Below the pieces are notes generated by a model that made no database searches, was not told the DNA's origin, and saw nothing but the letters and a program-made list of their open reading frames with translations. The position numbers and the translations under genes were made by a program. Shown piece by piece: positions 504 to 46,843 of a DNA stretch of 64,000 nucleotides (positions within the stretch are counted from its first letter, which is position 1; each line of letters opens with the position of its first letter). Source of the stretch: Gammaproteobacteria bacterium (GTDB lineage Bacteria > Pseudomonadota > Gammaproteobacteria > GCA-001735895); assembly GCA_014382695.1 (NCBI GenBank), contig JACNJF010000194.1, positions 861-64,860 on the forward strand, read 5' to 3'.

Positions 504-1196
504 ATGTACTGGCAGGAAGATCAGGATAAAGGTGAGCACTTCGTTGTTCCAGATGATGTAGTGGACCTACTGTTCAGTATCGAGTGCAGAGATCTGCCGC
601 TGGATCATGGCTTTGTACTGTCACAGCAGATCATAAAAAATCTGCCCTGGATACAGGAAGAGCCGCAGGCAGGCATCCATCAGATACATGTGGCCGAATC
701 GGCGAATGGCTGGATGCGTCCGGAAAATACTGAAACCGAAGTGCTGTGTGTTTCTCGTCGTACTAAAATGACACTACGATTGCCAGCCAGCAGACTGGAT
801 GAGGCAACAGCATTGACTGGAAAAACGCTCGACATACAGGGCCATGCGTTGACGGTAGGGCGTTTCTCTACCCGCAAACTGAGTCGATTAACCACTATAT
901 TTGCGCGTTATGTGGATACCCTCGGTAGCGATGACGAAACCGAGTTCCTGGAGTCGATGCAGCAACAACTGTTGCAGAAAGGCATCCGGGTTAAGAAGAT
1001 GATGAGTGGAAGGCTGCTCACCCATCAAAGCGATGAAGGCATCATCCTCACCCGTAAACTGATGGTTAGCGACCTGACCGTTGAAGAGTCTGTGCTGCTG
1101 CAGGAGCAGGGCATAGGCGACCGAAAATTAATGGGAATGGGTATCTTTATGCCACATAAGGGCATAGATGCGGTGAATAAAAAGCAGGAAGGCTAG
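504..1196 (+). CDS. hypothetical protein with a Cas6/RAMP-like C-terminal glycine-rich loop (GIGDRKLMGMGIF)
   Basis: A strong SD (AGCAGGGGAG) lies 7 nt upstream of the ATG. The C-terminal motif QEQGIGDRKLMGMGIFMP closely resembles the CasE G-loop GIGPAKSMGCGLL and the Cas6f G-loop GLSKGGFVPWF. No cas genes or repeats are nearby. Confidence 0.6.
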   Translation: MYWQEDQDKGEHFVVPDDVVDLLFSIECRDLPLDHGFVLSQQIIKNLPWIQEEPQAGIHQIHVAESANGWMRPENTETEVLCVSRRTKMTLRLPASRLDEATALTGKTLDIQGHALTVGRFSTRKLSRLTTIFARYVDTLGSDDETEFLESMQQQLLQKGIRVKKMMSGRLLTHQSDEGIILTRKLMVSDLTVEESVLLQEQGIGDRKLMGMGIFMPHKGIDAVNKKQEG

Positions 1197-9034: not shown

Positions 9035-11302
9035 ATGTCCGAAGATTTTCGCGAAAAAGCACTTGAATACCATCAATTTCCAACCCCCGGTAAATTATGT
9101 ATTCAGTCTACCGTACCTTTAACCACTCAGCGGGATCTGGCGCTAGCGTATTCGCCCGGAGTGGCTTATGCCTGTGAAGAGATTGAAAAGGATCCGTTGA
9201 AAGCGAGTGACTATACCGCGCGTGCCAATCTGGTTGGCGTCATAACGAATGGTACTGCAGTACTGGGTCTGGGTGCTATTGGCCCACTGGCCTCCAAGCC
9301 GGTGATGGAAGGGAAGGCGGTACTATTCAAGAAATTTGCCAATATCGATGTGTTTGATATCGAGATCAAGGAAGAGGATCCGATCAAGCTGGCGCAGACG
9401 ATCGAACGTCTGGAGCCTACCTTCGGCGGCATCAATCTGGAAGATATCAAGGCACCCGAATGCTTCATCGTGGAAGAGTATCTGCGTAAACATATGTCGA
9501 TACCGGTATTTCATGATGATCAGCATGGTACCGCGATCGTGGTTGCTGCCGCTTTAACCAGCGCCCTGGAGCTGGTTGGCAAGCCGATCGATAAGATCAA
9601 GCTGGTCTCATCCGGCGCAGGTGCAGCCGCGTTGGCCTGTCTTAACCTGCTGGTTTCGATGGGGCTGCCACGCGAAAATGTGATTGTCACGGATATCGAT
9701 GGCGTAGTTTATAAGGGCCGGGTGAAAGGGGCCGATCCGTATAAAGATCGCTATGCGGTGGACACTCCACATCGTACCCTGGCCGATGCCATCGCAGGTG
9801 CCGATGTATTTCTTGGCCTGTCAGCGGCGAATGTGCTGAAGCCTGCAATGCTGAAAACTATGGCCGAGCAGCCGGTCGTGTTCGCACTGGCGAATCCTAA
9901 CCCGGAAATTAATCCACTCGATGCGGTCAAGGTGCGTGATGATTTAATCATTGCAACCGGCCGTTCAGATTTTCCAAATCAGGTTAATAACGTGCTGTGT
10001 TTTCCTTTTCTTTTCCGCGGTGCGCTCGATGTCGGGGCCACCGAAATCAATGAAGAAATGAAGATTGCAGCGGTACATGCCATCTCGCGTCTGGCACGCG
10101 CCGGCAGTACTTCGGATATCGTCAGTTCTGCGTATGCGGGACAGTCACTACGCTTTGGACGCGAGTACCTGATACCAAAGCCGTTTGACCCACGTCTGAT
10201 CATTGAAATCGCGAGTGCAGTGGCACAGGCCGCGATGGACTCTGGTGTAGCCACCCGACCCATTGCTAATATGGCTGAGTATCGCGATAAGTTAACCAGT
10301 TTTGTGTATCGCTCTGGTTTGATCATGAAGCCAGTCTTTGAGCTGGCCAGAAACAGCCAGAAAAAGGTCGTTTTCCCAGAAGGTGAAAACCTGAAGGTGT
10401 TACAGGCGGTTGAAAATATTGTGCAGGATCGGCTCGCATTTCCGATTTTGTTAGGTCGCCCCGAGATCATCAAGGCGCAGATCAGCGAATATGGTTTGAG
10501 CATGCAGGAAGGGCGTGATTTTCAGATTATTTACGATACTGATGTCGAGAAATACGCCAGCAGCTATTACCAGATCATGCACAGACGAGGCGTCACCCTG
10601 ATGGAAGCAGAATCTCTGGTGCTGTCGAGTACTACGCTACAGGCCGCATTGATGGTTAAGCTGGGCGAAGCGGATACCTTTATCTGTGGTTCGATCGGTC
10701 GTTTCAATCAGCACCTGAAGCAGGTGATGGATGTTGCCGAACAACCGGATGGTGAGCAGCATATCTCGACTTTGAATGTGCATATATTAAATACCGGCAC
10801 TATCTTCATCTGCGATACCCAGGTCACGGTAAATCCGGCTGCTGAAGATATTGCTCAAATGGCGATAGCGGGTGCACGTGAAGTCGAACGTTTTGGAATC
10901 AAGCCACAGGTGGCGCTGCTATCGCACTCCAATTTTGGTAACCGAGATTCTGCTTCGGCCAGAAAAATGCGTGAAGCACTGGCTATCATTCGTAAACTGG
11001 ATCCAACGCTGGAAGTTGATGGTGAAATGCAAGCTGAATCGGCACTCTCTGCGGCTAAGCGCGGTGAAAAATTTGCCGATTCCAATCTGCAGGGTGCGGC
11101 TAATTTACTGGTGATGCCAAATCTGGACGCGGGTAATATCACCTCTAGCGTGTTACATGTGCTGGGCGGCGGAGTTTCCATCGGTCCTATTTTGATGGGC
11201 TGCAAGCTGGCCGGACATGTGGTGAATTCATCGATCAGTGTACGCGGCCTGGTGAATATGACCGTGGTTGCAGTGGCGCAGACTATTCAAGCTGCAAACT
11301 AA
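9035..11302 (+). CDS. maeB: NADP-dependent malic enzyme (malic enzyme domain plus phosphotransacetylase-like domain)
   Basis: The 755-aa product has a malic-enzyme N-terminal half and a PTA-like C-terminal half, which is the typical MaeB architecture. Confidence 0.95.
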   Translation: MSEDFREKALEYHQFPTPGKLCIQSTVPLTTQRDLALAYSPGVAYACEEIEKDPLKASDYTARANLVGVITNGTAVLGLGAIGPLASKPVMEGKAVLFKKFANIDVFDIEIKEEDPIKLAQTIERLEPTFGGINLEDIKAPECFIVEEYLRKHMSIPVFHDDQHGTAIVVAAALTSALELVGKPIDKIKLVSSGAGAAALACLNLLVSMGLPRENVIVTDIDGVVYKGRVKGADPYKDRYAVDTPHRTLADAIAGADVFLGLSAANVLKPAMLKTMAEQPVVFALANPNPEINPLDAVKVRDDLIIATGRSDFPNQVNNVLCFPFLFRGALDVGATEINEEMKIAAVHAISRLARAGSTSDIVSSAYAGQSLRFGREYLIPKPFDPRLIIEIASAVAQAAMDSGVATRPIANMAEYRDKLTSFVYRSGLIMKPVFELARNSQKKVVFPEGENLKVLQAVENIVQDRLAFPILLGRPEIIKAQISEYGLSMQEGRDFQIIYDTDVEKYASSYYQIMHRRGVTLMEAESLVLSSTTLQAALMVKLGEADTFICGSIGRFNQHLKQVMDVAEQPDGEQHISTLNVHILNTGTIFICDTQVTVNPAAEDIAQMAIAGAREVERFGIKPQVALLSHSNFGNRDSASARKMREALAIIRKLDPTLEVDGEMQAESALSAAKRGEKFADSNLQGAANLLVMPNLDAGNITSSVLHVLGGGVSIGPILMGCKLAGHVVNSSISVRGLVNMTVVAVAQTIQAAN

Positions 11303-11380: not shown

Positions 11381-12769
11381 ATGGCATCCACCCATCAGGA
11401 TTCGCTTCAGGCGAAACGAATCGCTGGAATTATCAGCGTTGTTATCTTCATTCTGGTCGGCATCAACGGCATCTTCACCTATTCAGGCGCGCATCTGTTT
11501 ATCAAGGAGATGCTGTTTGCGATATTGTTTGCGATTGCGGTGCAGTTTTCTATCGCCATCAGCCTGATTGCACTGCCGTATGTTAAGGGCGTCGGTAAGC
11601 TGGTGTTGCTAGTGGTGTATGTCGCTGCCCTGACCCTTTCCACGCTATCGGCCTATACCTTCATCTACAATGCCGGATTGCCGGGTACCATTGGCGATAG
11701 TAATGCCGTTAATACCCAGCTGAAGGCGCGTGTGGCCAATCAGTTAAGCGAAGTGATACTGCTGGAACAGGGCTTTATCGATGCGCAGACCGAACGTCTT
11801 GCCTTTCTCAAGCGCCAGGCTGAAGAAGAAGCACTGCGTGGCTTTCGTTCCGGTCTGGGAGCAGGCAAAGGGCCTGAGTATTATCAGAAGATAGAAATGC
11901 TACAGGCGGATGAAGTCCGTTTTGAAGCACAAAAACGCAAGTATGCAGAAGCAAAAACCATCTATGCCGAGATGGATAGTGCGTTGATGCAAAACACTCA
12001 GGGCCAGCGTGAAATACTGATCCTGTTGCTGTCTCGGCTGAAGTCTGTTGTCATCACGGATGAATCGAAACAGATACTGTCGGATATTTCACAAAGCAAA
12101 CTGGCGATCATTCAAAGTCCAATCGAAACCGCGATGGGGGTCATCATGGATCGTGATGCCTATTCGATACAGCTCGCAGTGAGCATTATCTGGGCCGCTG
12201 TCTTTGACTTGCTGGCATTGTTTCTGGGCATTATCCGTTACTATATCCTGCGCCCGAATTATTCTATCCTGTCGGTTATTTACGATACTATTTCAGCCTT
12301 CGTGACCTTCATCATCCGGCTTGGCTATCTGAAAAAAGATGCGCGCCAGAAGTACAATCAGGAGCTGCAGAACCAGAGCCACGGTACCCCGCTAAACTCT
12401 TCAGAAATGCAGTCTTTTGCGACCTATGTGATGGCGGGCAGTTTATTCTCCGCCGGTGAAGATCAGAATGCGATTGAGCCTTTGCAGAATTTAATCAGCC
12501 ATATTGAGCCGCTGAAGCTGGCCAGTGATCCGCGCGGCGTCGGTATTCCGTTTGCGGTAGTGGATGAGCAGAAGGCGATGAAAACCCTGATGGCGATGTT
12601 GATTCAGAGTCAGGTATTTCTGTCTGATGTGGAAAACGGGGTGTATGTGATGAACCCTGGCAGCGAAATGGCGCAGAAGATTCTGGTGTTCATCAAGATG
12701 GGGCTGAAAGATCCGAGCAAACAAAAAGAACTATCGCGTTTTGCGATTCCAGCAGAGGCTAATGCCTAG
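11381..12769 (+). CDS. hypothetical inner-membrane protein with central coiled-coil
   Basis: Three N-terminal TM helices, a charged coiled-coil segment of about 120 aa, further TM helices, and a C-terminal soluble domain. No family assigned. Confidence 0.6.
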   Translation: MASTHQDSLQAKRIAGIISVVIFILVGINGIFTYSGAHLFIKEMLFAILFAIAVQFSIAISLIALPYVKGVGKLVLLVVYVAALTLSTLSAYTFIYNAGLPGTIGDSNAVNTQLKARVANQLSEVILLEQGFIDAQTERLAFLKRQAEEEALRGFRSGLGAGKGPEYYQKIEMLQADEVRFEAQKRKYAEAKTIYAEMDSALMQNTQGQREILILLLSRLKSVVITDESKQILSDISQSKLAIIQSPIETAMGVIMDRDAYSIQLAVSIIWAAVFDLLALFLGIIRYYILRPNYSILSVIYDTISAFVTFIIRLGYLKKDARQKYNQELQNQSHGTPLNSSEMQSFATYVMAGSLFSAGEDQNAIEPLQNLISHIEPLKLASDPRGVGIPFAVVDEQKAMKTLMAMLIQSQVFLSDVENGVYVMNPGSEMAQKILVFIKMGLKDPSKQKELSRFAIPAEANA

Positions 12770-13413: not shown

Positions 13414-15969
13414 TTACTCCTGCTTAAGCGTGAAAGAAAAAGTGGTGCCTGAACCATAGATGCTCTCCACCTGTATGTTGCCACCATGTAACTCGACTAG
13501 ACGTTTTGTAATGGCCAGACCAAGCCCCGAACCGCCCACATTGCGGGTGGATGAATCATCGACCTGATGAAAGGTATCAAATATGAATGGCAGTTCCTTC
13601 TGTGGGATGCCAATACCAGTATCGGCCACGCTGAAGGTAACCCGTTTATCCTGTTGCACCGCCGATATTTTTATACTGCCCTGGCGGGTAAATTTAAGCG
13701 CATTTCCGAGCAGGTTGATCAAAATCTGACGCAGGCGACGTGCATCGACCTGAAACTCAAAATCTTGCGCATCGGTCATCAGCTCAATCGACTTGCGCTC
13801 GGCCAGGTTTTCAAACTTGCGTATCATCTCCTGGATTAGCGGGAGGCTGTGGATTGTTTCCAGTTGAAGATCCATCTGGCCGGCTTCTATCTTGGAGATG
13901 TCGAGTAGATCGTTGATCATTTCGAGTAGATGGTTGCCGGAAATATCCATATCGTTGGCGATCTGTGCAATGATTTCAGCAGATGGCATCTGTTCCAGGT
14001 TTTTTAGCATGGGCAGATAACCCAGAATGACGGTGAGAGGGGTACGCAGCTCATGACTCATCACGTTCAGAAACGCTGACTTTTGCCGGTTAGCATCTTC
14101 GGCGGCCAGCTTTGCCCTGAGCATGGCCTGTTCCGAGCGTTTTTGCTCGGTAATATCCAGGTTCACCCCGATCATGCGCTGGGCACGCTTTTGATCATCC
14201 AGCACTACCAGTGCAGAGGCCTTGATATGGCGTTCTTCATGATTCGGCCACAGGATACGAAACTCCGTTTCGAAAGACTTGCCATTCTGAATCGCGTCAT
14301 TCAGTTCTGCTTTGGTGCGCAGTAGATCATCCGGATGCAGCGCTCCCTGCCAGGCTTCGTAGGCATCAGGAAACTGATCTTTGGTGAGGCCATACAGGTC
14401 GAACATACGTTTATCCCAGTTCAGGGTGTTCTGGATCACATCAAAATCCCATACCCCAATACTACCGGCACGAGCGGCCAGCTCCAGACGATCATTAAAT
14501 TCCTTTAACTCGTTTTCCTGCTGTTTCATATCGGTCAGGTCCTTAACTGTACCGATAAACAGTGTGCCCCCATTCACCTGAGCCTGTCCGACCGACAGGT
14601 TCATCGGGAAGGTGAGCCCTGATTTTCTTTTACCGACCACTTCACGTCCGATACCAATGATGCGCTTTTCATGGGTTTGCTGATAATGATCCAGATAACC
14701 GTCATGCTCAGAATGGTATGGCTCAGGCATCAGGATTTTAATATTCTGACCGATCACTTCTTCGGCACTATATCCAAACATTTTTTCAGCCGCAGGGCTG
14801 AATAGACTGACAATACCCAGAGGATTGATCGTGATCACGGCATCGACGGCATTCTCAACGATTGTCCGGTTCATCTTTTCACTTTCAACCAGTTGCCGAC
14901 TGCGCTGGTTAACCAGTTTTTTAATGACAACCTCGCGGTTAATCAGATTGCGTAGATAAAAGCTGATCAGCAGGGTGAAGGTTATACCCACCGCTAACAC
15001 CAGCCACTCGGTCTGTTTGGAATGCAGCTGGGCAAACTGGGTGGTGGCGATACTGGTGATGCGCCAGGTACGGTTAGCAATCTGGATATCCCTGGCATAG
15101 CGCCAGCGCCAGCCTGGCAGGGGTTCCAGTTGCGCCGAAGATTTCATGCTATAGAGTAGTTCGGTATCTGCCAGATCAGTGATATCGATGATCTTTATCA
15201 TCAGTGGATCGAGTAATGCCTTGAGTGGCTGAATGGCCGATTTAAACAGGTCGCCCACGCGAAATACGCCTAACACATAGCCATTAAATCTTTCCTGCGA
15301 CAGGGTCTGGTTTTTTTCTAGCGGTACAAATATGGGTTGAATAATCAAAAATCCCTTTTGTCGGGCGGATGCCTGAATCAGGGTAATGCTTGAGGTTGCC
15401 TGCGTTTGCCGGCTTAGACGTGCCATTTGCAGACTGGCCATGCGCTCGGGACTGGTTGCAAGATCAAACCCTAATACCGCCATGTTTCTGGCCAGGGGTT
15501 CAACATAAAACACCGGGTAATATACCCAGTGATCCTGGGTTGGGATTAGTTTTCCTTCGGCGTTTTGTGACCTGAACTCAAAATCAGTCAGGCCGTCCGC
15601 AAGCGCATTTAAGCGATAGGTTTCACGTTCGCTGGCCATCACCTGCGGAACCCATTCCATGGCATGGATTGAAGCGTTATCCCTGATCAGGGATTCGGTA
15701 AAGCGGAAGAAGTCTTCCCGGCTGACCTCGGGAGACACCATAAAAAACCGTTGTATACCGGATAGTCTGCTCTGATTGATTTCGAGTTCCTTACTCAGCG
15801 CATCGATGGCGAGCTGAGTGGCGCTTTCGTGTTCGACCTGAATGGTGCGGTTTTCCAGCTCTACTGCGACCCGAAACGCCAGAAAACTTAAGCCTAATCC
15901 TGTAAATAGAACCAGCCAGTGAATAAAGCTATTGCGCTGTTCCCGGTAAGGCTGCTGCATGGTTAACAT
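13414..15969 (-). CDS. sensor histidine kinase with periplasmic CHASE domain, PAS/PAC domains, HisKA and HATPase_c
   Basis: Two TM helices flank a periplasmic domain of about 250 aa. The H-box is MSHELRTPL, and the ATPase G-boxes are GSGLGLAI. There is no fused receiver. Confidence 0.9.
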   Translation of the reverse strand: MLTMQQPYREQRNSFIHWLVLFTGLGLSFLAFRVAVELENRTIQVEHESATQLAIDALSKELEINQSRLSGIQRFFMVSPEVSREDFFRFTESLIRDNASIHAMEWVPQVMASERETYRLNALADGLTDFEFRSQNAEGKLIPTQDHWVYYPVFYVEPLARNMAVLGFDLATSPERMASLQMARLSRQTQATSSITLIQASARQKGFLIIQPIFVPLEKNQTLSQERFNGYVLGVFRVGDLFKSAIQPLKALLDPLMIKIIDITDLADTELLYSMKSSAQLEPLPGWRWRYARDIQIANRTWRITSIATTQFAQLHSKQTEWLVLAVGITFTLLISFYLRNLINREVVIKKLVNQRSRQLVESEKMNRTIVENAVDAVITINPLGIVSLFSPAAEKMFGYSAEEVIGQNIKILMPEPYHSEHDGYLDHYQQTHEKRIIGIGREVVGKRKSGLTFPMNLSVGQAQVNGGTLFIGTVKDLTDMKQQENELKEFNDRLELAARAGSIGVWDFDVIQNTLNWDKRMFDLYGLTKDQFPDAYEAWQGALHPDDLLRTKAELNDAIQNGKSFETEFRILWPNHEERHIKASALVVLDDQKRAQRMIGVNLDITEQKRSEQAMLRAKLAAEDANRQKSAFLNVMSHELRTPLTVILGYLPMLKNLEQMPSAEIIAQIANDMDISGNHLLEMINDLLDISKIEAGQMDLQLETIHSLPLIQEMIRKFENLAERKSIELMTDAQDFEFQVDARRLRQILINLLGNALKFTRQGSIKISAVQQDKRVTFSVADTGIGIPQKELPFIFDTFHQVDDSSTRNVGGSGLGLAITKRLVELHGGNIQVESIYGSGTTFSFTLKQE

Positions 15970-17609
15970 TCATCATGAATAATAGTTTTGTTACGGCCAC
16001 TTTCCTTGGCCTGATAAAGGGCTTCATCCGCCGCTTCTATCAGCTTATTTTCCTGGCTGAAAGTGGTGCTGCCGGATATCCCTGCGCTAAAACTGCACTT
16101 AAACTCTTCCTTGTCACTCTTGAACGTTAGCTGAGAAAAAGAAACACGCAGTTTTTCAATGATTTCGAAGGCGGCATCCGGACTGGTATTCGGCATGATA
16201 ATACCAAATTCTTCGCCACCGTAACGCCCAATCAGATCGGATTTACGCAGGCGATCTGTCAGCAATTGCGCAAGAGATTTGAGTACTCGGTCGCCAATCG
16301 AATGGCCGAAACGGTCATTAACCTGTTTAAACAGGTCTATATCCAGCATCAGGTAACTGAGTGGTTCATTTTGACGCTGGCTACGAGCCAGTTCGGATTC
16401 AACCCGGCGTTTAAGGGTGATCTGATTGAGTAAGCCGGTCAGGCCATCGTGATACATCAGCTCGCTGAGGGTGCGCGAACGCTCTATTCTCGACTCAATG
16501 GTACTGATCAACTGTTTATCATCGATCGGTTTTACCAGAAAATCATCGCCCTGTTGCAGGGTCTGCAGCTGGATTTTACGGTTGGTTTCGGTCGACAGAA
16601 AAACAATCGGTGTACTGAAGTAGGTTTGATGCTGGCGCAATACGCTGGCGACTTCAAGACCGGTGATGCCTGGAAAATAAAAATCAAGCAACACCAGTTC
16701 CGGCTGAAACAAGGACATTTGCTCAAGGATGTGTTCTGGATCTGCTAATACGCTGGTATGCATACCCGCCTGACGTAATACCAGGCTGTAGTGCTGGGCC
16801 AGTTCTTCGGTATCGTCTACCACCAGCACCCGGTAGGGCTCGCGCCGGACCCGTTGCGTGATCAGATCCAGGTGATTCACCAGTTCGGAAATATCCAGTG
16901 GTTTTTCCAGGTAAGCGGAGCCACCTGCGCGCACCGCGGCGAGCCGGGATTCCCAGTCCTTGCGTTGAGAGATGAACAGAGCAGGTACCGGTTGCTGTAA
17001 AAGCTGGCGTATCTCGGAGGCAAACTGAGTGCCCGCTAATACACCTTCGGGCAAAATGATATCGAGTACCAGTGCATCCGGTATCTGCATTTCTACCATT
17101 TTTCTGGCGTCAGTCGCGGATGAAAATAAATGGGTTCTAAATCCATAATGTTGCAACTGCAGGCACAGATCCTGTCCCTGAAAAGCTTCATCTTCCACGA
17201 TATATATCAGACGCTGGGCCATGATGGATGGGGTAGTCAGCTGTTCCAACGGCTCAATAATCGAGGTGTTTTCAGGCCCGTTCTCAATCAGGGTATGCAA
17301 TGCCTGCAATCCCCGAACGAGATATTTTGTGGTTTTGCTATCCAGCGTATTTTTCTGGTTTATCGCCTCTTTGAGGATTAATTCCAGTTGGCGCGACTGC
17401 TCACTTAACTGAAAAAATCCGAAGGTACCGGCTGATCCACTCAGACTATGGATCTGGCGGAATATGTCATGCAGCATGGTTGCCGGGTCCGAATGATCGA
17501 CCAAACCATTCAGATCCGCAATCATCTGATCTACGCGAATCCCAAGATTAGCGGCAAACTCCAGCCTGAGAGCCGCTAACTGTTGCTGTATGTCATCCTG
17601 TCCGGGCAT
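15963..17609 (-). CDS. response regulator with N-terminal HPt domain, two receiver domains and a GGDEF (GGEEF) diguanylate cyclase domain
   Basis: HPt-like His in QIHSLSGSAG. Two REC domains (IVEDE...LDIILP and VVDDT...LDFYFP). GGEEF motif with an RKSD I-site. The gene overlaps the HK gene by 7 nt. Confidence 0.9.
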   Translation of the reverse strand: MPGQDDIQQQLAALRLEFAANLGIRVDQMIADLNGLVDHSDPATMLHDIFRQIHSLSGSAGTFGFFQLSEQSRQLELILKEAINQKNTLDSKTTKYLVRGLQALHTLIENGPENTSIIEPLEQLTTPSIMAQRLIYIVEDEAFQGQDLCLQLQHYGFRTHLFSSATDARKMVEMQIPDALVLDIILPEGVLAGTQFASEIRQLLQQPVPALFISQRKDWESRLAAVRAGGSAYLEKPLDISELVNHLDLITQRVRREPYRVLVVDDTEELAQHYSLVLRQAGMHTSVLADPEHILEQMSLFQPELVLLDFYFPGITGLEVASVLRQHQTYFSTPIVFLSTETNRKIQLQTLQQGDDFLVKPIDDKQLISTIESRIERSRTLSELMYHDGLTGLLNQITLKRRVESELARSQRQNEPLSYLMLDIDLFKQVNDRFGHSIGDRVLKSLAQLLTDRLRKSDLIGRYGGEEFGIIMPNTSPDAAFEIIEKLRVSFSQLTFKSDKEEFKCSFSAGISGSTTFSQENKLIEAADEALYQAKESGRNKTIIHDEC

Positions 17610-17756
17610 AGGGCTTTTATACTCACGATTAAAAAAATACGATAAATTAGATTAATAAATCAGTATAAACTTGTTTTATAGTTCTGTACTAGGCGTCAGA
17701 TTCATATTAATGTAATGTCCAGTTTTTATGTGGTTTTAAGGTAAGAGAGAGCAGCA

Positions 17757-19847
17757 TTGGAAAGCGCTAATATCCTGATCGTAGAAGATGACCTTTTCGA
17801 GGCAGAGCATCTTAAACTACACCTGCAACAGGCAGGTCATCATATCGTAGATATCCTCAGCTCTGGCGAAGAAGCTATCGCCAGAGTTAACCACAATGGG
17901 ATCGATATCATGTTGGTGGATATCGTACTATCCGGAGAGCTGGATGGTATCGAGGCGGTACAACAAATCCGTAATAAACAGGATATTCCTGTCATTTTTC
18001 TGACCGCACATGTGAATGCTGATTTGCTGTTAAGGGCAGAACGAGCACGACCTTTCGCTTATCTACTCAAGCCCTATCGTCAGCTTGAGCTCGAATTCAT
18101 GATTAACATGAGTCTGGCCCGGAAGCGCGTTGAACAGGAATTGGCAACCCAGAAAGATCTGGCTGAAGCTGAATTACGTCAGGCTCAGGCCATTATTCAT
18201 CATACCAATGAAGGGGTGATGATTACGAACTCAGAAAGAATTATTATGTTCGTAAATCCGGCATTCAGCCGGATCACAGGTTATGAGCTGGATGACTGTA
18301 TCGGACAGAAAACGAGCATTCTGAATTCAGGCCGGCATGATGATGCGTTTTATGCCGATATCTGGTTTTCCATAGAGCATTACGGTCACTGGCAGGGTGA
18401 GCTATGGAACCGGCGTAAAAATGGTGAAATTTATCCGGAATGGTTGACGATAAATCCTATAGCTGAGCGTGATGGCAGTATCCGTCGTTATGTGGGTATC
18501 TTTTCTGATATCTCCAGCATCAAGCAGTCTGAAGCGGAGCTGGAACATCTCGCGCATCACGACCCGCTGACCAATCTGCCCAATCGCCTGTTATTGATGA
18601 CACGATTGCGCTATTCGCTACGCACCGCTTCCCGTCACCGACTGATGTGTGCGGTGCTGTATATCGATCTGGATCGTTTCAAGTTGATCAATGACAGCCT
18701 CGGGCATGAAATCGGGGATGTGGTTTTACAGACGGTTGCACGGCGATTCGAGAATCAGGTGCGCGAAGCCGATATGGTGGCACGTCTGGGCGGTGATGAA
18801 TTCGTGGTACTGCTGGAAGGCATCACTGATCCGGTCGATGCTTCGCTGATTGCACAAAAAATCATTCAGTCTCTGGAGCAACCGGTGATGGTGAATGACC
18901 ATCGTTTTTCGATCAGTTGCTCCATCGGTATTGCGATTTACCCGAAGGATGGGAATACGGTGGAGGACCTGTTACGTGATGCCGATTCGGCCATGTATCA
19001 GGCCAAAAAAATGGGTATGAACAATATCGTTTTTTACACCGAAGATATGACGCGTAAGGCTTATCGACGCATCAAACTCTACAGTGAGTTACGTCAGGCG
19101 CTGGTTAATCAGGAATTCAGACTCCATTATCAACCCCAGATCAATATGAAGTCAGCCAGCTTAATCGGGGTAGAAGCCCTGATCCGCTGGAAGCATCCTG
19201 AGAAAGGATTGATGGGGCCGAAGCATTTTATCCAGGAAGCCGAAGATACCGGACTGATCATTCCGATTGGAATATGGGTGTTGCAACAGGCCTGCCGGGA
19301 TATGAAGTCCTGGCTCGATAAGGGCCTGAAGTTTGGACGCGTATCGGTGAATGTCGCCGGTCCGCAGCTACAACGTGGTGATTTACTAACCGTGGTGAAT
19401 ATGGCGCTGGCAAAAGCGGAATTAAAACCGCAGTATCTGGAACTGGAGCTGACCGAGACCTATGCCATGGAACTGATAGAATCGCATCTACAGACACTCA
19501 ATGACCTCAACACCATGGGCGTCAGCATCGCTATCGACGATTTCGGTACCGGCACATCATCACTGAGTAAGCTGAAAAATCTGCACATCGACAAACTCAA
19601 GATTGATCGCTCATTTGTCACCGATATCCCGATGGATAAAAACGATGAAGCGATTACCCGTGCAATTATCGGGATGAGTCACACGCTGGGTCTGAGTGTG
19701 ATCGCGGAAGGGGTCGAGACGAAATCACAGGAACAGTTTCTGATTCGTGAAAACTGCCTGTTTGCTCAGGGCTTTCTATACAGCAAGCCGCTCAATATTA
19801 TTGAATTTGAAAAATTTGCGGCGAAATACAATCCACTACCGGATTGA
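17757..19847 (+). CDS. response regulator REC-PAS-GGDEF-EAL
   Basis: TTG start. REC domain (ILIVEDD...MLVDIVL), PAS domain, GGDEF with READ I-site, and EAL (EALIRW, DDFGTGTSSL). Confidence 0.9.
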   Translation: MESANILIVEDDLFEAEHLKLHLQQAGHHIVDILSSGEEAIARVNHNGIDIMLVDIVLSGELDGIEAVQQIRNKQDIPVIFLTAHVNADLLLRAERARPFAYLLKPYRQLELEFMINMSLARKRVEQELATQKDLAEAELRQAQAIIHHTNEGVMITNSERIIMFVNPAFSRITGYELDDCIGQKTSILNSGRHDDAFYADIWFSIEHYGHWQGELWNRRKNGEIYPEWLTINPIAERDGSIRRYVGIFSDISSIKQSEAELEHLAHHDPLTNLPNRLLLMTRLRYSLRTASRHRLMCAVLYIDLDRFKLINDSLGHEIGDVVLQTVARRFENQVREADMVARLGGDEFVVLLEGITDPVDASLIAQKIIQSLEQPVMVNDHRFSISCSIGIAIYPKDGNTVEDLLRDADSAMYQAKKMGMNNIVFYTEDMTRKAYRRIKLYSELRQALVNQEFRLHYQPQINMKSASLIGVEALIRWKHPEKGLMGPKHFIQEAEDTGLIIPIGIWVLQQACRDMKSWLDKGLKFGRVSVNVAGPQLQRGDLLTVVNMALAKAELKPQYLELELTETYAMELIESHLQTLNDLNTMGVSIAIDDFGTGTSSLSKLKNLHIDKLKIDRSFVTDIPMDKNDEAITRAIIGMSHTLGLSVIAEGVETKSQEQFLIRENCLFAQGFLYSKPLNIIEFEKFAAKYNPLPD

Positions 19848-20489
19848 AAAATTTGTAAGCAGTGTTTCAAACTCTGCCCGCGTTATATCGACGGCCCCCA
19901 TGTTGACCAGATGGCGAGTATTCATCTGACAGTCGATGATCCGATACAGGCCTGACTCCACCAGCGCTTTGAGACAGCATTTAGACGCGTTTTCGGCATG
20001 GCTGAACATCGATTCACCATAGAAAAACTGCCCGATCGCAACCCCATATAGCCCCCCCACCAGTATCTTGTCGGCACTCCAGCATTCATAGGAGTGCGCA
20101 TAACCAGCGTTGAATAGCGCGCTATAGGCATCGATCATGGCTGGGCTAATCCAGCTGCGCGGTTGATTCTTGCGCGGTTCTGAGCAGGCTTGCATCACAG
20201 CGCGAAAGCTCTGGTCGCGGGTAATCAGATAGGGTGACTTTTTGAGGAATTTCCGAAACGAGCGGTTGATGTGAAAATTCTGTGGAAACAGCACCGTGCG
20301 CGGAGCCGGTGACCACCACAGTATCGGTTCATGTTCATTGAACCAGGGGAAAATGCCGTGTCCGTAGGCTTCCAGCAACCACTCTACATTCAGCTGTCCA
20401 CCGGCGGCCAGCAGGCCATTCGGTTCCGTTAGTGCGCTGCCGGTGGGCGGAAAGTGCGCAGCTGATAGCGGGTTCAGCCAGGGGATCAA
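19836..20489 (-). CDS. aat: leucyl/phenylalanyl-tRNA--protein transferase
   Basis: Similar to E. coli Aat throughout (GLLAAGG, FPWF, WWSP motifs); the gene order matches E. coli. Confidence 0.9.
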   Translation of the reverse strand: MIPWLNPLSAAHFPPTGSALTEPNGLLAAGGQLNVEWLLEAYGHGIFPWFNEHEPILWWSPAPRTVLFPQNFHINRSFRKFLKKSPYLITRDQSFRAVMQACSEPRKNQPRSWISPAMIDAYSALFNAGYAHSYECWSADKILVGGLYGVAIGQFFYGESMFSHAENASKCCLKALVESGLYRIIDCQMNTRHLVNMGAVDITRAEFETLLTNFSIR

Positions 20490-21637
20490 GCGTTTTTCCG
20501 GTAGGGCGATTTTGCCAGCATTTCGGTACAGTACTGATCGATATACTGTTCTTCCTGTTGCAGGTAATGGCCAATGGCCTGCTGAAACTGTTGGTCGACA
20601 AACCAGTGTGCGGAACAGGTGCGTTGTGGCAGAAAACCACGACTGATCTTATGCTCACCCTGAGCGCCCGGATCAAAATGCTGCAGCCTGTTTTCGATAC
20701 AGAAATCGATGCCCTGATAGTAACAGCACTCAAAATGCAGATGGTTGTAATACTCTTCGCAGCCCCATAGACGACCGTACAGCGTGCTGTCGCTAACGAA
20801 AAACAGCGAAGCGGCAATGATCTCTTCCTGCTTTAGTGCCAGCACCACCATTACCCGCTGTTTCAGTGCCCGACCGATGCGACGGAAAAAATCTTCACTG
20901 AGGGTGGCGGTTCCATATTTACGCTGAAAAATGCCGGCGTAGAGTTGATGTACTCTGTGCCATTCGGCATCCGTTAGCTGATCCCCGTATTTGCGGCAGA
21001 TGGTGAGGTCTTCAGCGGCTACGGCAGCCCGTTCCTTGCGGATATTTTTACGCTTTCTGGAGCTCAGTTGTGCCAGGAAGTCAGCAAAGTTCTGGTAACT
21101 TTGGTTATGCCAGTGATACTGACAGTCATAGCGCAGCAGCAGTTGATGATTGGTAAACGATTTCACAATGCTTTCCCGTTCAAACAGTAAATGCCAGCCA
21201 CTAAGTTGATGAGTCTGGCAAAACTGCTGGATCAGTTGAATCAGTTGCAGCCTCAACTGATGCGCCTGTTGCGCATCACTAATCTGCCGGTGAATCAGAA
21301 AGCGTGGGCCGGTGGCCGGTGTATAGGGGATGGCGGTCACCAGTTTTGGATAATAGTTCTGGCCCGAGCGTTCGTAAGCCTGGGCCCAGGTGTGATCGAA
21401 CACCAGTTCGCCATACGAGTTGGACTTGATGTAGCAGGGTGTCGCCGCAAGCAGCGAAGCGCCATCATGCAGTAGAAAGTAAACCGGCTGCCAGCCGTAT
21501 TCGAGCAGACAGTGGTGCTGTTCCAGCGCCAGCAGAAACTCATGCCGGGTAAACGGGTAATCAGCCTCACCGAGTTGATTCCATTCGCTTTCTTCAATCT
21601 CGGTCAGGCTCTGTTTTATCGTTACCTCAAGCTTCAT
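20486..21637 (-). CDS. GNAT-fold acyltransferase of the FemAB-like/DUF482 family
   Basis: The 383-aa product has an N-terminus W..L....PF..H.FL.ALE.....GW.P typical of PF04339. Its stop overlaps the aat start. Confidence 0.6.
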   Translation of the reverse strand: MKLEVTIKQSLTEIEESEWNQLGEADYPFTRHEFLLALEQHHCLLEYGWQPVYFLLHDGASLLAATPCYIKSNSYGELVFDHTWAQAYERSGQNYYPKLVTAIPYTPATGPRFLIHRQISDAQQAHQLRLQLIQLIQQFCQTHQLSGWHLLFERESIVKSFTNHQLLLRYDCQYHWHNQSYQNFADFLAQLSSRKRKNIRKERAAVAAEDLTICRKYGDQLTDAEWHRVHQLYAGIFQRKYGTATLSEDFFRRIGRALKQRVMVVLALKQEEIIAASLFFVSDSTLYGRLWGCEEYYNHLHFECCYYQGIDFCIENRLQHFDPGAQGEHKISRGFLPQRTCSAHWFVDQQFQQAIGHYLQQEEQYIDQYCTEMLAKSPYRKNA

Positions 21638-21689: not shown

Positions 21690-22688
<999 letters not shown>

Positions 22689-22857: not shown

Positions 22858-25191
22858 TTGGCACAGGCAAAAGCAAAACCCCCGGTTAATTCGCAGGCAG
22901 ACGGCCAGATTCTGAGCAGTCAGTTTGATCAGCGCCTGCGTGAAGCTGGCATGCTGATCTCGTTTGCGCTGGCGATCTATATGCTGGTTGCACTGCTCAG
23001 CTATGATCCGGCCGATGCGGCGTGGTCGCATAGCGGACTGAATCAGCGTGCCACCAATTTTGGCGGTTCGGCGGGTGCCTGGCTATCCGATCTGCTGCTG
23101 TATCTGTTCGGTTATATGGCCCTGCTGCTGCCGGTGATGCTGTTTTATAACGGCTTCATTCTAGTGCGTGCAAAAATCAGCAGTGCTGAAGACCGTTATC
23201 AGATGCTGGCGGTGCGCTGGAGCGGATTTGCGCTGACCCTGATCTCCGGCTGCGCGCTGTCCAGCCTGCATTTTGCAATGGATAAATCGATGATGCCGCT
23301 GGATGCTGGTGGCATTCTGGGTCAGCTGGCGGGGCATAATTTTTCTCTTAGCATGGGTTTTCTGGGCGCGACCGTGCTCCATCTGGCGCTGTTTTTGTCC
23401 GGTCTCACCCTGTTTACGGGCCTGTCCTGGCTGGCGGTTCTGGATTATACGGGGAAGGGGACTCTGCGCGCTTTTGACTGGTTGAGCGATCAGTATTACC
23501 TTCTCAAGGATAGGCGTATCGGCAGTAAGCTACGTCATCAACGGGAACAGATTTTTACTGAGCATCTTCTGAAAAAGGAAACGCGCAAGCCAGTACGCAT
23601 CGAACCGGTGGTGAAACAGCTGGAACCGAGTGAGCGGGTGCTTAAGGAGCAACAGATTCCGCTATTCAATAAGTCCGATAATGAAAGCTTTATGCCATCG
23701 CTGTCACTGCTGGACAACCCGCCACCGCGTACCCAGGGCTATAGCCCGGAAGCGCTGATGGCGATGTCACAGCAGCTCGAATCCAAGCTGCTGGATTTTG
23801 GTATCGAGATTCAGGTTGAGTCGGTTCATCCCGGCCCGGTTATCACGCGTTTTGAAATCATGCCGGCGGCAGGGGTCAAGGTCAGTCAGATCTCCAATCT
23901 GGCAAAGGATCTGGCGCGATCACTTTCAGTGATTGCGGTCCGTGTGGTGGAAGTCATTCCGGGTAAATCGGTGATGGGGCTGGAGATACCCAACGAGCAT
24001 CGTGAAATCGTGGTACTCAGCGAGATTCTAAAGTCGAAAGCCTACGATCAATCACACTCGCCTTTGACACTCGCGCTGGGCAAGGATATCGGTGGTGAAG
24101 CGGTGGTAGCGGATCTGGCCAAAATGCCGCATTTGCTGGTGGCGGGTACCACCGGTTCCGGTAAGTCGGTGGCGGTGAACGCAATGCTGCTAAGCCTGCT
24201 GTTCAAGTCTACTCCGGAGCAGGTGCGGCTGATCATGATCGATCCGAAGATGCTGGAGCTGAGCGTGTACGATGGCATTCCGCATCTACTGGCTCCGGTG
24301 GTGACCGACATGAAGGATGCGGCGAATGGTCTGCGCTGGTGTGTAGCGGAGATGGAACGGCGCTACAAATTGATGTCCGCTCTCGGTGTGCGCAATATCG
24401 CGGGCTATAACAAAAAGGTTAAAGATGCCATCGCTGCGGGTGAACCGATCAAAGATCCGCTGTTTAATCGCGAGCAGGCGATGTTGATGAATCCGGATGC
24501 CGTACCGGAAGATCTGGACAAGCTGCCTTATATTGTGGTTGTGGTGGATGAGTTTGCCGACATGATGATGGTGGTGGGCAAGAAGGTGGAAGAGTTGATC
24601 GCGCGTCTGGCGCAAAAGGCACGTGCTTCTGGTATCCATCTGATACTGGCCACCCAGCGTCCGTCGGTGGATGTGATCACCGGCCTGATTAAATCGAATA
24701 TCCCGACCCGTATTGCGTTTCAGGTCTCATCCAAGATCGACTCACGCACGATACTGGATCAGATGGGCGCGGAAAACCTGCTCGGGCATGGCGATATGCT
24801 CTATCTGCCACCCGGTACCAGCCTGCCGGAACGTATCCACGGTGCGTTTGTGGATGATCATGAAGTTCATGATGTGGTCGCTGAAATCAAGAAGCAGGGG
24901 AAACCAAACTACGTGGAAGGGGTCTTACAGGAGCAGACTGCTCCGGTGTTACCGGGAGAAGTCGGTCAGGATTCGACCGGTGCCGATCAGGATGCGCTGT
25001 ACGATGAAGCGGTCGCAATCGTGACGGAAACCCGTAAGGCATCGATTTCGTATGTGCAGCGTCGCCTCAAGATTGGCTATAACCGGGCGGCTCGTATGAT
25101 TGAAGAAATGGAAGCCTCTGGAGTCGTGACTCCGGTGCAGTCGAATGGCAGTCGTGAAGTGCTGGCGCCTGCGCCACCCTCTATGGATTAA
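22858..25191 (+). CDS. ftsK: DNA translocase FtsK
   Basis: TTG start. N-terminal TM helices, a linker, then a C-terminal motor with Walker A (GTTGSGKS) and the gamma domain. Confidence 0.95.
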
Positions 25192-25209
25192 CCCTTGAAT
25201 ATTAAAACC

Positions 25210-25836
25210 ATGAAAAATAGTTTAGTGATGTTAATGAGCCTGCTGCCAGCATTATCTTTGCCAGTGAGCGCGACAGAAGTTGAAGACCGGCTGAACCGTG
25301 CCATGGCTTCGCTCGATAATCTGCAGGCTGAGTTCAAACAGACTCTGATTGATGACAATAAGAAGATAGTGCAGCAGTCGATGGGGCGGGTTTCGATCCA
25401 GCGCCCTGGTAAATTCCTATGGATCTATGAACAGCCCTACGAGCAGCAGATCATTGCCGATGGTAAAGAGTTATGGGTCTACGATGTGGATCTGGATCAG
25501 GCCACGGTGAAGCCGATGGAAGCAGGGCTGGCTTCGGCACCGATCATGGTGTTGATGAAGCAGCAAAAGGTCGAAACCGAATTCGATGTGAGTGAAGTCG
25601 GTCAGCACAAATACCTGTACTGGATTGAGCTGACGCCGAAGAACACGGATATGGAATACACCCGAATCTATATCGGAATGGAGAATGAAACCATCAAGGC
25701 ATTGGAGTTGCGTGACAGCTTCGGTCAGAGTACCCAGATCGTGTTTGAGAATCAGCGCAATAATGTAATTTTCAAGCCGGATACCTTCAAGTTTGTGCCG
25801 CCTGCCGGAGTCGATGTGTTCGGGGTCGGTGGTTAA
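25210..25836 (+). CDS. lolA: outer-membrane lipoprotein carrier protein LolA
   Basis: Signal peptide followed by the LolA fold. Conserved position after ftsK. Confidence 0.9.
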   Translation: MKNSLVMLMSLLPALSLPVSATEVEDRLNRAMASLDNLQAEFKQTLIDDNKKIVQQSMGRVSIQRPGKFLWIYEQPYEQQIIADGKELWVYDVDLDQATVKPMEAGLASAPIMVLMKQQKVETEFDVSEVGQHKYLYWIELTPKNTDMEYTRIYIGMENETIKALELRDSFGQSTQIVFENQRNNVIFKPDTFKFVPPAGVDVFGVGG

Positions 25837-25845
25837 GCCTCTGTG

Positions 25846-27150
25846 ATGCAGGATCTGTTTGCCGTCGAGCATGCCTATCAGCCTCTGGCGGATCGTATGC
25901 GACCGCAGAATCTGCAACAGATGATCGGGCAGTCGCATCTGCTGGCGGCAGGAAAACCACTGCGCCAGGCGATAGAATCCGGGAAACTGCATTCGATGCT
26001 GTTCTGGGGACCTCCCGGCACCGGCAAGACCACCCTGGCCAGGCTGATCGCGCGCTACAGTGATGCTCAGTTTCTATCGGTATCAGCCGTGTTATCCGGC
26101 GTTAAGGACATCCGAGCAGCGGTCGATCAGGCCAGACAGTTCAGCGGTTTAACGGTTTTGTTTGTAGATGAGGTACACCGCTTTAATAAATCCCAGCAGG
26201 ATGCCTTTCTGCCGCATATCGAAGATGGCACCCTGATTTTTGTTGGGGCCACCACTGAAAACCCTTCGTTCGAGCTGAACAATGCGTTGTTATCGCGAAC
26301 TCGAACCTATCTGCTGAAGTCTTTCACGGAAGCGGAGCTATCGGCACTGGTGGATATGGCTTTGCAGGACAGTGAACGCGGTCTCGGCCAGTTACAGTTA
26401 AACATAGCAGATGATGCACGCGCGCTGCTGATCCGAGCTGCCGATGGCGATGCACGGCGTGTGCTGACCTTTCTTGAGATACTGGCCGATCTTGAAATCG
26501 ATGGACAGATCGGCGCAGAGCAGGTGTCCGAAGTGGTCAGTCATGGGCATCGACGGTTTGATAACAAGGGCGATATCTTCTATGAGCAGATCTCCGCGTT
26601 ACATAAGTCGGTACGCGGATCCGATCCAGATGCCGCGCTCTACTGGTTATGCCGGATGCTGGATGGCGGCTGCGACCCGCTGTATATCGCGCGCCGGGTG
26701 GTGCGTATGGCTTCAGAAGATATTGGCAATGCCGATCCGCGCGCTCTTGAAATCAGTCTCAATGCCTGGTCCTGTTTTGAGCGACTGGGTAGTCCGGAAG
26801 GTGATCTGGCGATTGCCCATGCGGTGATTTATCTGGCCTGTGCGGCGAAGAGTAATGCGGTATACAATGCTTTCAAACAGGCCATGAGTGCGGCGCGCGA
26901 AACCGGCAGTCTGGATGTGCCTGCGCATCTGCGCAATGCGCCCACGCAGTTTATGAAGGAACTGGGTTACGGGAAGGATTATCGTTATGCCCACGATGAA
27001 ATGGAAGCCTTTGCGGCTGGAGAAAAATATTTTCCGGATGAGATGCCTGTATCTCATTACTATCAGCCGGTCGAGCGTGGACTGGAAACTCGAATTGCAG
27101 AAAAACTACGTTATCTGCGCAACCTGAATAAACAACATGATGTTGAATAA
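25846..27150 (+). CDS. rarA: replication-associated recombination protein A (AAA+ ATPase)
   Basis: Aligns with E. coli RarA throughout, including [11 protein letters not shown] and DEVHRFNK. Confidence 0.95.
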
Positions 27151-27739
27151 ACCCTTTTCTGAATCCTGTGAGCAAAACAGGCTGCCCATCCGACAGGTAC
27201 TGGAACGCTATCTGGAAGGCCGTCGTACGCTACTGGAAATTGGCAGTGGTACCGGTCAGCATGCCATCTATTTCGCTACTGAGTTTCCAGCTCTGGTCTG
27301 GCAAACCAGTGATCTTGCGGAAAATCATTCGGGCATTGCGGCCTGGATCAAGGATAGCGGTCTTTACAACGTGCTATATCCACTGACACTCGATGCAGGC
27401 AGCGACTGGCCGGATCAGCAATATGATCTGTTGTTTTCGGCAAACACGCTGCATATCATGTCGCAATCGGCTGCTGAGCAGTTCATGCGCAGGGTTTCCG
27501 GCTGTATGCATGCGCAATCTGTGCTGCTGCTGTATGGACCGTTTAATTATCAGAATCTTTATACCTCAGACAGTAATGCACGCTTCGATCAGTGGTTGAA
27601 GCAGCGTGACCCTGCCAGCGGAATAAAAAACTTTGAATGGCTAAAAGACATAGCCGATCAGTCTGGTTTAGAATGCACGGAAGATTTCGCGATGCCCGCC
27701 AATAATCGACTGTTGGTATGGCAAAAAACAGGCGGTTGA
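27137..27739 (+). CDS. class I SAM-dependent methyltransferase, DUF938 family
   Basis: The GxGxG-like SAM motif [11 protein letters not shown]. Length about 200 aa. Overlaps the rarA 3' end by 14 nt. Confidence 0.65.
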
Positions 27740-46001: not shown

Positions 46002-46057
46002 TGGAGTGCTGGCTATTCGTCAAGCATGACGAGTAGCCATTGACTCTGGTGACCCGG

Positions 46058-46843
46058 ATGAATCTTCAATTACAACTTGCCCTTCAGGTTTTGCTGCTAC
46101 CGCTGGTACTGTCTTTTGTGGTGTGGCATGCGGGCTTAAAAAGTCATCGATTTAACCTGCTAGCATTGTTTCTAATCTGGGTTATCAGTTTTGTGTGGAT
46201 AAAAGGCATGCCAGCTTTTCCACCTGCAGAAGCGGTAGAGTGGGTGGTATTAATCGGCCTGCTGTATGCCATTATCAGTATCAGCTTTAAATCTGCCGTC
46301 ATTCCATTGCTGCTGAATGCCGCCATTTTGTTGCTTGGAATTGTAATCTTGACCTGGCCGGTACTGATCCGTGCTTCAGACCCACAGTTTTTTTTAGAAC
46401 TCTTTTTGTTTGCTTCACTCGGAATAATAATACCCCTCCTCTTGAAACGCGCTTCTCCTTCCAGTCCAGCTTTAACAGTGGGAATCAGCAATGCTGGTCT
46501 CGCTGCGATATCTGGGCTGGGTGGGAGTCTTTTAATTGGACAACTGGCTGGGGTCGCGGCCTCGTTGCTGGGTGCTTTTATACTGTATGAGCTGCTTTCA
46601 AAACTGCACAATTCTGAATTACCACCTCGATCCCTTAATCTGATGGTGAACCTGCATATCTGGCTTGCGCTAATCGCTAGAGTATATGCGGAAGTGGCAC
46701 TTATTCCCGTTGTACTGGTTAGTCTGTCGTTGTTGTTTGGTTTGACCGTTCGCTGGCGCTACGCCTCTGTAGTGTCGTTACTGTTGAGTTTGGGAGCTTT
46801 GGGCTGGTTGTTAGCGACCAGCGATAACTCCAGCTATTACTAG
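46058..46843 (+). CDS. hypothetical polytopic membrane protein
   Basis: At least 7 predicted TM helices and no motif. The track start is at 46040. Confidence 0.5.
   Translation: MNLQLQLALQVLLLPLVLSFVVWHAGLKSHRFNLLALFLIWVISFVWIKGMPAFPPAEAVEWVVLIGLLYAIISISFKSAVIPLLLNAAILLLGIVILTWPVLIRASDPQFFLELFLFASLGIIIPLLLKRASPSSPALTVGISNAGLAAISGLGGSLLIGQLAGVAASLLGAFILYELLSKLHNSELPPRSLNLMVNLHIWLALIARVYAEVALIPVVLVSLSLLFGLTVRWRYASVVSLLLSLGALGWLLATSDNSSYY

Follow-up and report, generated by a model that had tools for sequence, protein, structure and literature searches.

The stretch of DNA analyzed here (the window) comprises 64,000 nucleotides of contig JACNJF010000194.1, from an uncultured gammaproteobacterial genome. 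Its minus strand carries a gene of the DUF482/FemAB_like family (positions 20486 to 21637), recognized as an open reading frame (ORF) with a Pfam match and encoding a tandem-GNAT protein of 383 amino acids; the family is PF04339, which we take to be the Pfam counterpart of COG3146. Next to it on the same strand lies aat (19836 to 20489), which encodes a leucyl/phenylalanyl-transfer RNA (tRNA)-protein transferase of 217 amino acids and begins with TTG. The two genes meet in a TTGA stop/start overlap (20486 to 20489, minus strand), read directly from the sequence, which is a candidate for translational coupling. The pair belongs to a conserved trxB-DUF482-aat string inside an old proteobacterial block, in which serS-rarA-lolA-ftsK form one arm, trxB ... 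aat, optionally bpt, and infA form the center, and clpA-clpS-cspD form the other arm. The known aat/bpt/clpAS neighborhood is thus present here in a variant form, with an extra Fem-type transferase gene that is uncharacterized and, in many Gammaproteobacteria, a candidate for translational coupling to aat.

The 383-residue protein matches PF04339 from end to end (residues 10-381 on positions 1-369 of the 369-position profile), with an E value of 9.7e-137 and a score of 456.4 bits against a gathering cut-off of 27. An initial annotation of the window, made from the sequence alone, had described the gene upstream of aat as encoding a FemAB-like GNAT-fold protein and had proposed a search with PF04339; this full-length match, well above the cut-off, and the tandem GNAT halves bear the description out. 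The Pfam scan (E≤0.01) returned only one other model, the generic GNAT model PF13480, which matches weakly, and no Fem-named model other than PF04339 appeared among the matches. The PEP-CTERM FemAB model TIGR03019 scores 17.4 bits against a cut-off of 260, so the protein does not fall in that family. Resemblance to Bpt, which the initial annotation had named as the outcome that would speak against it, was not found: the Bpt domains ATE_N and ATE_C (PF04376 and PF04377) are absent from the Pfam matches, BLASTP against the Pfam-verified Bpt of a related locus (L101, described below) gives E = 0.13, and hhalign assigns the comparison of DUF482 and Bpt profiles a probability of 0.08-0.15%. The PF04339-type family comprises 833 clusters at 50% identity (E≤1e-30), and a search for domain fusions among its longer members found only extensions without annotation.

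The identity of aat is supported by PF03588 (E = 1.8e-65), by the equivalog model TIGR00667 (173.8 bits against a cut-off of 143.55), and by 46% identity to Aat of E. coli K-12, with the IDCQ segments of the two proteins aligned to each other; the D-x-Q residues of this segment are presumably the catalytic ones in the E. coli enzyme. At the junction, the plus strand reads TCAA and the coding strand TTGA, so that the TTG start of aat and the TGA stop of the DUF482 gene share two bases. This TTG is the sole candidate among ATG, GTG, and TTG codons upstream of the conserved N-terminus of the aat ORF, and it places 12 residues ahead of the conserved FP..G.AL motif, just as many as E. coli Aat has. 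The overlap had already been reported in the initial annotation, and the TTGA at 20489-20486 confirms it, positions included. Taken alone, this overlap is not unusual and carries no meaning, because about 5 of about 32 same-strand neighbor pairs in the window also overlap (a manual count on longest-ORF calls). Its recurrence, unlike the single case, exceeds chance: an aat start candidate overlaps the DUF482 stop in about 19 of the 36 adjacent DUF482-aat pairs that we collected, either by 4 nucleotides (ATGA, GTGA, or TTGA) or by 1 nucleotide (TAATG/TGATG). The overlapping pairs include lineages in which the DUF482 protein is only ∼40% identical to that of the window, and the pairs without overlap have spacers of 3-190 nucleotides.

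On the other side of the DUF482 gene, 52 nucleotides upstream of its start, lies trxB (21690 to 22655, minus strand), encoding thioredoxin reductase (TIGR01292, 386 bits against a cut-off of 343). A consensus scan of the minus strand of this spacer found no promoter-like and no terminator-like site, and the same scan between trxB, DUF482, and aat gave nothing informative. Such a spacer is compatible with a single transcript, and trxB, DUF482, and aat probably form one transcription unit that begins with trxB.

Related loci were gathered by a genome-contig scan with a single DUF482 protein (14 loci), by three context look-ups (six further loci), and by a metagenome scan with a diverse alignment (80 loci, the best 80 of at least 598 matches). 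Neighboring genes were mapped on all loci by tblastn with Pfam-verified queries, within flanks of at most 10 kb on the related contigs. The association of DUF482 with aat is conserved more widely than the single window shows: of the 37 loci with both genes, 36 have aat directly after DUF482, in lineages that carry the source names Woeseiaceae, Thioalkalivibrio, Thiogranum, and uncultured Gammaproteobacteria, the clade of the window among them. The sole nonadjacent locus (L026, 6164-8386) has two opposite-strand ORFs of 436 and 266 amino acids between DUF482 and aat. A separate irregularity occurs in a metagenome-assembled genome of the window's clade (L004, 7149-7313), where the aat frame matches over ∼55 residues and then diverges completely; a genuine disruption of the gene or a chimeric contig could account for this.

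The gene contexts of DUF482 are of several kinds. Context A runs from divergent ftsK through trxB, DUF482, aat, in some loci bpt, and infA to convergent clpA-clpS; it accounts for 25 of the 80 loci from the metagenome scan (three of them end short of aat) and for L001-L006, L012, L015-L020, and L101. In context B, ubiA is followed after a gap of 10-50 nucleotides by DUF482 and then by convergent yaaA. In context C, which occurs in an alphaproteobacterial-like lineage, the order is a yjgF-like gene, sometimes a GDPD gene, DUF482, a HIT gene, and convergent clpA-clpS; aat is not nearby, and DUF482 is one gene away from clpA-clpS. The yjgF/DUF482/HIT trio is seen in many loci of this kind. One example comes from a compact marine genome (L102, 7539-9595), where DUF482 sits beside convergent clpA-clpS between a YjgF/RidA-like gene (0-nucleotide gap) and a HIT gene (1-nucleotide overlap); this genome is probably alphaproteobacterial, a guess based on a neighboring DUF1489 gene. 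Other loci have mixed neighbors, namely MFS, ZIP, and POT transporters, HAD, RsgA, DUF938, ParA-like, DUF218, and FKBP genes.

The most complete version of the block is given by L101, in which pre-computed Pfam labels trace the order serS, rarA, lolA, ftsK, ald (all five leftward), trxB, an opposite-strand PilZ gene, DUF482, aat (with a 4-nucleotide overlap), bpt, an ORF of 102 amino acids, infA, convergent clpA and clpS, and then cspD. Here three transferase genes, DUF482, aat, and bpt, are consecutive and are followed by infA and convergent clpA-clpS. The order DUF482-aat-bpt, with bpt directly after aat, is found in five loci in all (L024, L027, L028, L034, and L101); in L034 the gene after aat is an ORF of 241 amino acids that carries both ATE_N and ATE_C in Pfam, and the genes after aat in the other four loci are its relatives. 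The small ORF between bpt and infA in L101 (11952-12260, ∼102 amino acids) has no Pfam match, and a weak relative of it occupies the same position in L024 (4772-4972; 34% identity over 67 amino acids, E = 5e-13).

It is instructive to compare these arrangements with E. coli K-12, where genes b0880-b0893 read cspD, clpS, clpA, serW, infA, aat, cydC, cydD, trxB, lrp, ftsK, lolA, rarA, and serS. The window shares the aat-to-rarA part of this block and L101 shares the whole block order, and the presence of the same block in E. coli indicates that the block is old. E. coli differs in that cydDC, not DUF482, lies between trxB and aat, and that lrp lies between trxB and ftsK; bpt is likewise missing from its trxB-aat region, and neither DUF482 nor bpt is known to us from elsewhere in its genome. 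The window's clade differs from E. coli in turn, since its infA/clpAS arm has moved away from aat and the aat-infA-clpA link is broken. The trxB side of the string is also variable: an opposite-strand PilZ gene parts trxB from DUF482 in L034 as in L101, the trxB-DUF482 gap widens to 640 nucleotides in L027 and 357 nucleotides in L038, and tblastn gave no trxB match between ftsK and DUF482 in L052. The DUF482-aat pair is kept both where the infA/clpAS arm is lost and where trxB is separated; this junction is the most persistent link of the block.

Neither single-sequence nor profile searches found a solved relative of DUF482. An AlphaFold2 model built from 38 homologues (predicted local distance difference test score 91.7, predicted template-modeling score 0.90) consists of two GNAT-like halves. 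In Foldseek comparisons, the template-modeling scores of this model are ∼0.55-0.62 to FemX, compared with 0.30-0.45 to VipF, Eis, and similar proteins. The predicted fold is thus a tandem GNAT fold and is closest to the aminoacyl-tRNA-dependent transferases of the Fem and aminoacyl-phosphatidylglycerol synthase (aaPGS) type, a ranking that upholds the initial annotation's view of the protein as having a FemAB-like fold of the kind that uses aminoacyl-tRNA.

Conservation within the family is strong and does not depend on gene context. In a comparison of 93 DUF482 members drawn from every context, identity reaches 95% or more at 59 positions, all of which carry the consensus residue in the window protein. 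The second domain begins with an invariant basic helix, R194-R203 (R194, K195, R196, K197, R200, K201, and R203), and further conserved segments read Y-G-R-x-W-G, L-H-F-E-x-C-Y-Y, and G-x-Q-G-E-H-K330-x-x-R-G-F. The second of these contains an invariant cysteine, C305, and the third contains the invariant pair H329-K330, located just past strand 5 of the second GNAT domain.

These features bear on the chemistry of the donor. GNATs that use coenzyme A (CoA) hold its pyrophosphate by a Q/R-x-x-G-x-G/A motif. The corresponding loop of the second domain of DUF482, between strand 4 (285-293) and helix 3 (300-315), reads EEYYNH and does not contain this motif. The missing CoA motif and the conserved basic helix R194-R203 both support a tRNA donor, and on the strength of the predicted fold class we infer that DUF482 may use aminoacyl-tRNA. 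The basic helix recalls the tRNA-binding features of FemX and Ate1 (PMC9351520). In the same comparison of FemX, Ate1, and aaPGS, a catalytic lysine follows an aromatic residue (F304-K305 in FemX, Y303-K304 in Ate1; K813 in L-PGS and K840 in A-PGS), and a histidine that binds tRNA phosphates is also described (PMC9351520). The H329-K330 pair could be the DUF482 counterpart of this aromatic-lysine pair, a candidate that we offer as a lead only. A profile of Bpt sequences matches Ate1 structures, K-M-x-Y-K motif included, and Y221-K222 of Bpt, matched to KMKYK of human ATE1, is possibly analogous to H329-K330 in the same way.

FemX and its relatives (Weissella viridescens FemX, 4II9; S. aureus FemX, 6SNR, and FemA, 1LRZ) have ∼10% sequence identity to DUF482, which occurs in Gram-negative Proteobacteria and, as At2g23390, in plants; we know of no Fem-type interpeptide bridges in either group. 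The aaPGS domain of MprF/LpiA (4V36, 4V35, 6LV0, and 9J8Q) has ∼8-10% identity, and the AlphaFold2 model of DUF482 differs from MprF/LpiA in being a single compact two-GNAT fold with no extra flippase-like domain. Sbb17 and Sba18 (9WQX and 9WQY) are, according to the titles of their PDB entries, aminoacyl-tRNA-dependent peptide synthases crystallized with streptothrisamine, a small molecule, while DUF482 is a broadly distributed family found beside housekeeping genes. Bpt/Ate1 (PF04376 and PF04377) shares the gene cluster, with bpt two genes away from DUF482 in the related loci. COG3146, At2g23390, and the cotton protein GhACNAT are listed as one orthologous family, to which we take PF04339, the family of the window protein, to correspond.

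What could hold DUF482 and aat together? The reading that we rank first, and consider plausible though tentative, is a shared pathway in which DUF482 is functionally tied to Aat; the initial annotation had likewise suggested two aminoacyl-tRNA-dependent transferases acting in one pathway. Three observations place it first: the persistence of the DUF482-aat junction, the position of clpA-clpS one gene away from DUF482 in context C, and the rarity of the Fem-type fold. The genomic linkage extends to other genes of the N-degron set: aat is adjacent in 36 of 37 loci, bpt comes after aat in five, and in two contexts clpA-clpS belongs to the cluster or is one gene distant. Since few genes per genome are expected to have a Fem-type fold, it would be a notable coincidence for an unconnected gene of this type to lie beside two aminoacyl-tRNA-protein transferases.

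Two N-terminal aminoacyl transferases are known to us from the N-degron pathway of bacteria, Aat and Bpt, and the physiological substrates of both are poorly defined. In the form of the shared-pathway reading that we prefer, DUF482 would be the third aminoacyl-tRNA-dependent transferase of the aat/bpt cluster. It would be produced from the same transcript as Aat, with translation of the two coupled in many lineages, and would work with Aat and Bpt in readying protein N-termini for ClpS/ClpAP. It would probably serve a class of N-termini outside the range of the other two enzymes, and it would have been added to Bpt rather than replacing it. That PF04339 is such an unrecognized transferase of the ClpS/ClpAP N-degron pathway, co-translated with Aat and extending degrons beyond the N-termini served by Aat and Bpt, is a specific proposal to which we give only a low probability. 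If true, it would add a branch to the N-degron rule of bacteria. The plant homologue At2g23390 might then provide chloroplasts with an N-terminal transferase; we know of no Aat or Bpt counterpart in these organelles. In either case DUF482, an uncharacterized family, gains a concrete and cheaply testable functional hypothesis, and should the proposal fail, the locus would remain instructive as a clear case of an ancient synteny block mimicking functional coupling.

Several observations weigh against a functional tie to Aat and favor another explanation, which we regard as a serious possibility without favoring it: DUF482 could be a stand-alone housekeeping transferase, possibly aminoacyl-tRNA-dependent, that acts on a nonprotein acceptor (a small molecule, a lipid, or an envelope precursor) and lies beside aat only through inheritance of the block. 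The same block has bound unrelated genes (infA, trxB, ftsK, lolA, rarA, and cspD) for equally long, so adjacency by itself is weak evidence; in E. coli the trxB-aat slot is taken by cydDC, and the unrelated infA is beside aat. Overlaps, too, often join unrelated genes of the block, as in lolA/rarA and ftsK/lolA of L101 and in rarA/DUF938 of the window. DUF482 is closely packed with other partners too, in ubiA-DUF482-yaaA and, at spacings of 0-1 nucleotide, with yjgF and HIT, and elsewhere its neighbors are mixed. In a neighbor-joining tree of DUF482 proteins, the gene contexts fall in largely separate clades, which indicates that the arrangement mostly reflects vertical inheritance. The invariant residues are identical in every context, and no residue specific to aat-linked proteins was found among the 93 members, indicating that the chemistry of DUF482 is independent of whether aat is adjacent. 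The equivalence of K330 with K305 of FemX is itself a candidate only, and the closest structural relatives (FemX, MprF, and Sbb17) all use nonprotein acceptors.

The literature adds further points on this side. A search on DUF482, PF04339, and COG3146 found no functional study, most matches to "DUF482" apparently coming from longer DUF numbers that begin with the same digits, and no documented aminoacyl-tRNA use, protein acceptor, or phenotype for DUF482. Gerdes et al. (2011) gave COG3146 (At2g23390) the working prediction "pterin-dependent enzyme" on the basis of comparative genomics, and the sole assay reported there, a complementation assay, detected no benzoate hydroxylase activity for the Xanthomonas campestris protein (PMC3223725); that effort left COG3146 unsolved. 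The passages relevant to this family in that paper and in two plant studies (PMC3531887 and PMC4488762) make no mention of aat; the first of the plant studies detects At2g23390 in the soluble chloroplast proteome (PMC3531887). What an inherited arrangement accounts for less readily is that DUF482 and aat stay adjacent in 36 of 37 loci, with an overlap in about half, also in loci from which trxB or infA/clpA has been separated, and that a rare Fem-type fold would have come to lie by chance beside two aminoacyl-tRNA transferases and, in a second context, near clpAS.

Another explanation, which we consider improbable, is that DUF482 is an ordinary acyl-CoA-dependent GNAT N-acyltransferase with no connection to tRNA. 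The public names of its homologues ("GNAT family N-acetyltransferase" and "acyl-CoA N-acyltransferase") and the PF13480 match point in this direction, as does the presence of the tandem acyl-CoA GNATs MAB_4324, clavulanate ORF14, VipF, and Eis among the fold matches. The cotton study treats the plant homologue as an acyl-CoA enzyme that affects lipid metabolism and jasmonate, and silencing of GhACNAT affected lipid metabolism, jasmonate, and fertility, phenotypes that are given without biochemistry (PMC4488762). The EEYYNH loop argues against this explanation, as it occupies the place where the pyrophosphate motif of a CoA-using GNAT would be expected.

The initial annotation had placed DUF482 next to aat "instead of bpt", and here the results depart from it. 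Both genes coexist in the five loci with the order DUF482-aat-bpt, and they occupy different positions, DUF482 upstream of aat in the trxB-aat slot and bpt downstream; DUF482 is probably an addition to Bpt and not a substitute, and the headline of a replacement finds no support in the comparative data. In the 64-kb window itself, no bpt was found by Pfam analysis of ten mid-sized ORFs or by tblastn with two Bpt queries, and in the window's clade (L001-L006 and L015-L022) the 6-8 kb around the locus likewise yielded none, which would fit a replacement of Bpt in this lineage by a nonhomologous analogue that aminoacylates N-terminal Asp and Glu. However, infA, clpA, and clpS, the neighbors of bpt in related loci, are likewise without a tblastn match in the window, so that absence of bpt from the genome does not follow and the gene may lie elsewhere in it. 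In addition, no residues set apart the DUF482 proteins of loci that also contain bpt, and we consider such a replacement very unlikely. Most unlikely of all is a redox role in which DUF482 is tied to trxB, as cydDC might be in the same slot of E. coli, rather than to aat: trxB lies 6-100 nucleotides upstream of DUF482 or overlaps it in most aat-linked loci and C305 is invariant, but trxB is set apart by the PilZ gene or the long gaps in L101, L034, L027, and L038, unmatched at its place in L052, and absent from the other DUF482 contexts in the tblastn map, and the fold gives no hint of redox chemistry.

The remaining arm of the conserved block in the window is formed by ftsK, lolA, and rarA, which are divergent from trxB (22858 to 27150, plus strand) and were assigned from the tblastn map and from the Pfam domains LolA and MgsA. 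Their order is the same in L015, L017, L018, L101, and E. coli K-12. A DUF938 methyltransferase-like gene (27137-27739, plus strand) follows rarA with a 14-nucleotide overlap, an order repeated in relatives, and in L068 the DUF482 gene is immediately followed by a DUF938 gene (2949-3548), in what looks like a rearranged version of the block.

At the other end, a REC-PAS-GGDEF-EAL gene (17757 to 19847, plus strand; ORF coordinates and Pfam) converges on aat, and the 3' ends of the two genes overlap by 12 nucleotides (19836-19847). This gene marks the limit of the conserved unit, and the genes beyond the 3' side of aat vary among L001-L022. It is the last of a set of cyclic di-GMP signaling genes around the locus (2191-6531, plus strand, and 13414-19847), which encode a SBP-GAF-PAS-GGDEF-EAL protein of 1446 amino acids, a CHASE-PAS histidine kinase, a Hpt-REC-GGDEF protein, and the REC-PAS-GGDEF-EAL protein.

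The window begins with a Cas6 gene (504-1196, plus strand; PF09559, E = 3.6e-57). Tandem Repeats Finder detected no array over the 64 kb, and other parts of a CRISPR-Cas locus may precede the window. A tRNA scan of the whole window was empty, and three plus-strand ORFs are without a Pfam match at the thresholds used (11381-12769, 462 amino acids; 46040-46843, 267 amino acids; and 61040-61933, 297 amino acids). The window also carries a malic enzyme-PTA gene (9035-11302). In L015 (12094-15108), L017, and L018, a malic enzyme-PTA fusion is adjoined, near DUF482-aat, by a malate thiokinase-like CoA ligase pair and a gene whose domains read as a HpcH/HpaI-family lyase; judged from these domains, the genes may hint that this uncultured lineage has a C1/C2 metabolism of the serine-cycle type or one related to glyoxylate.

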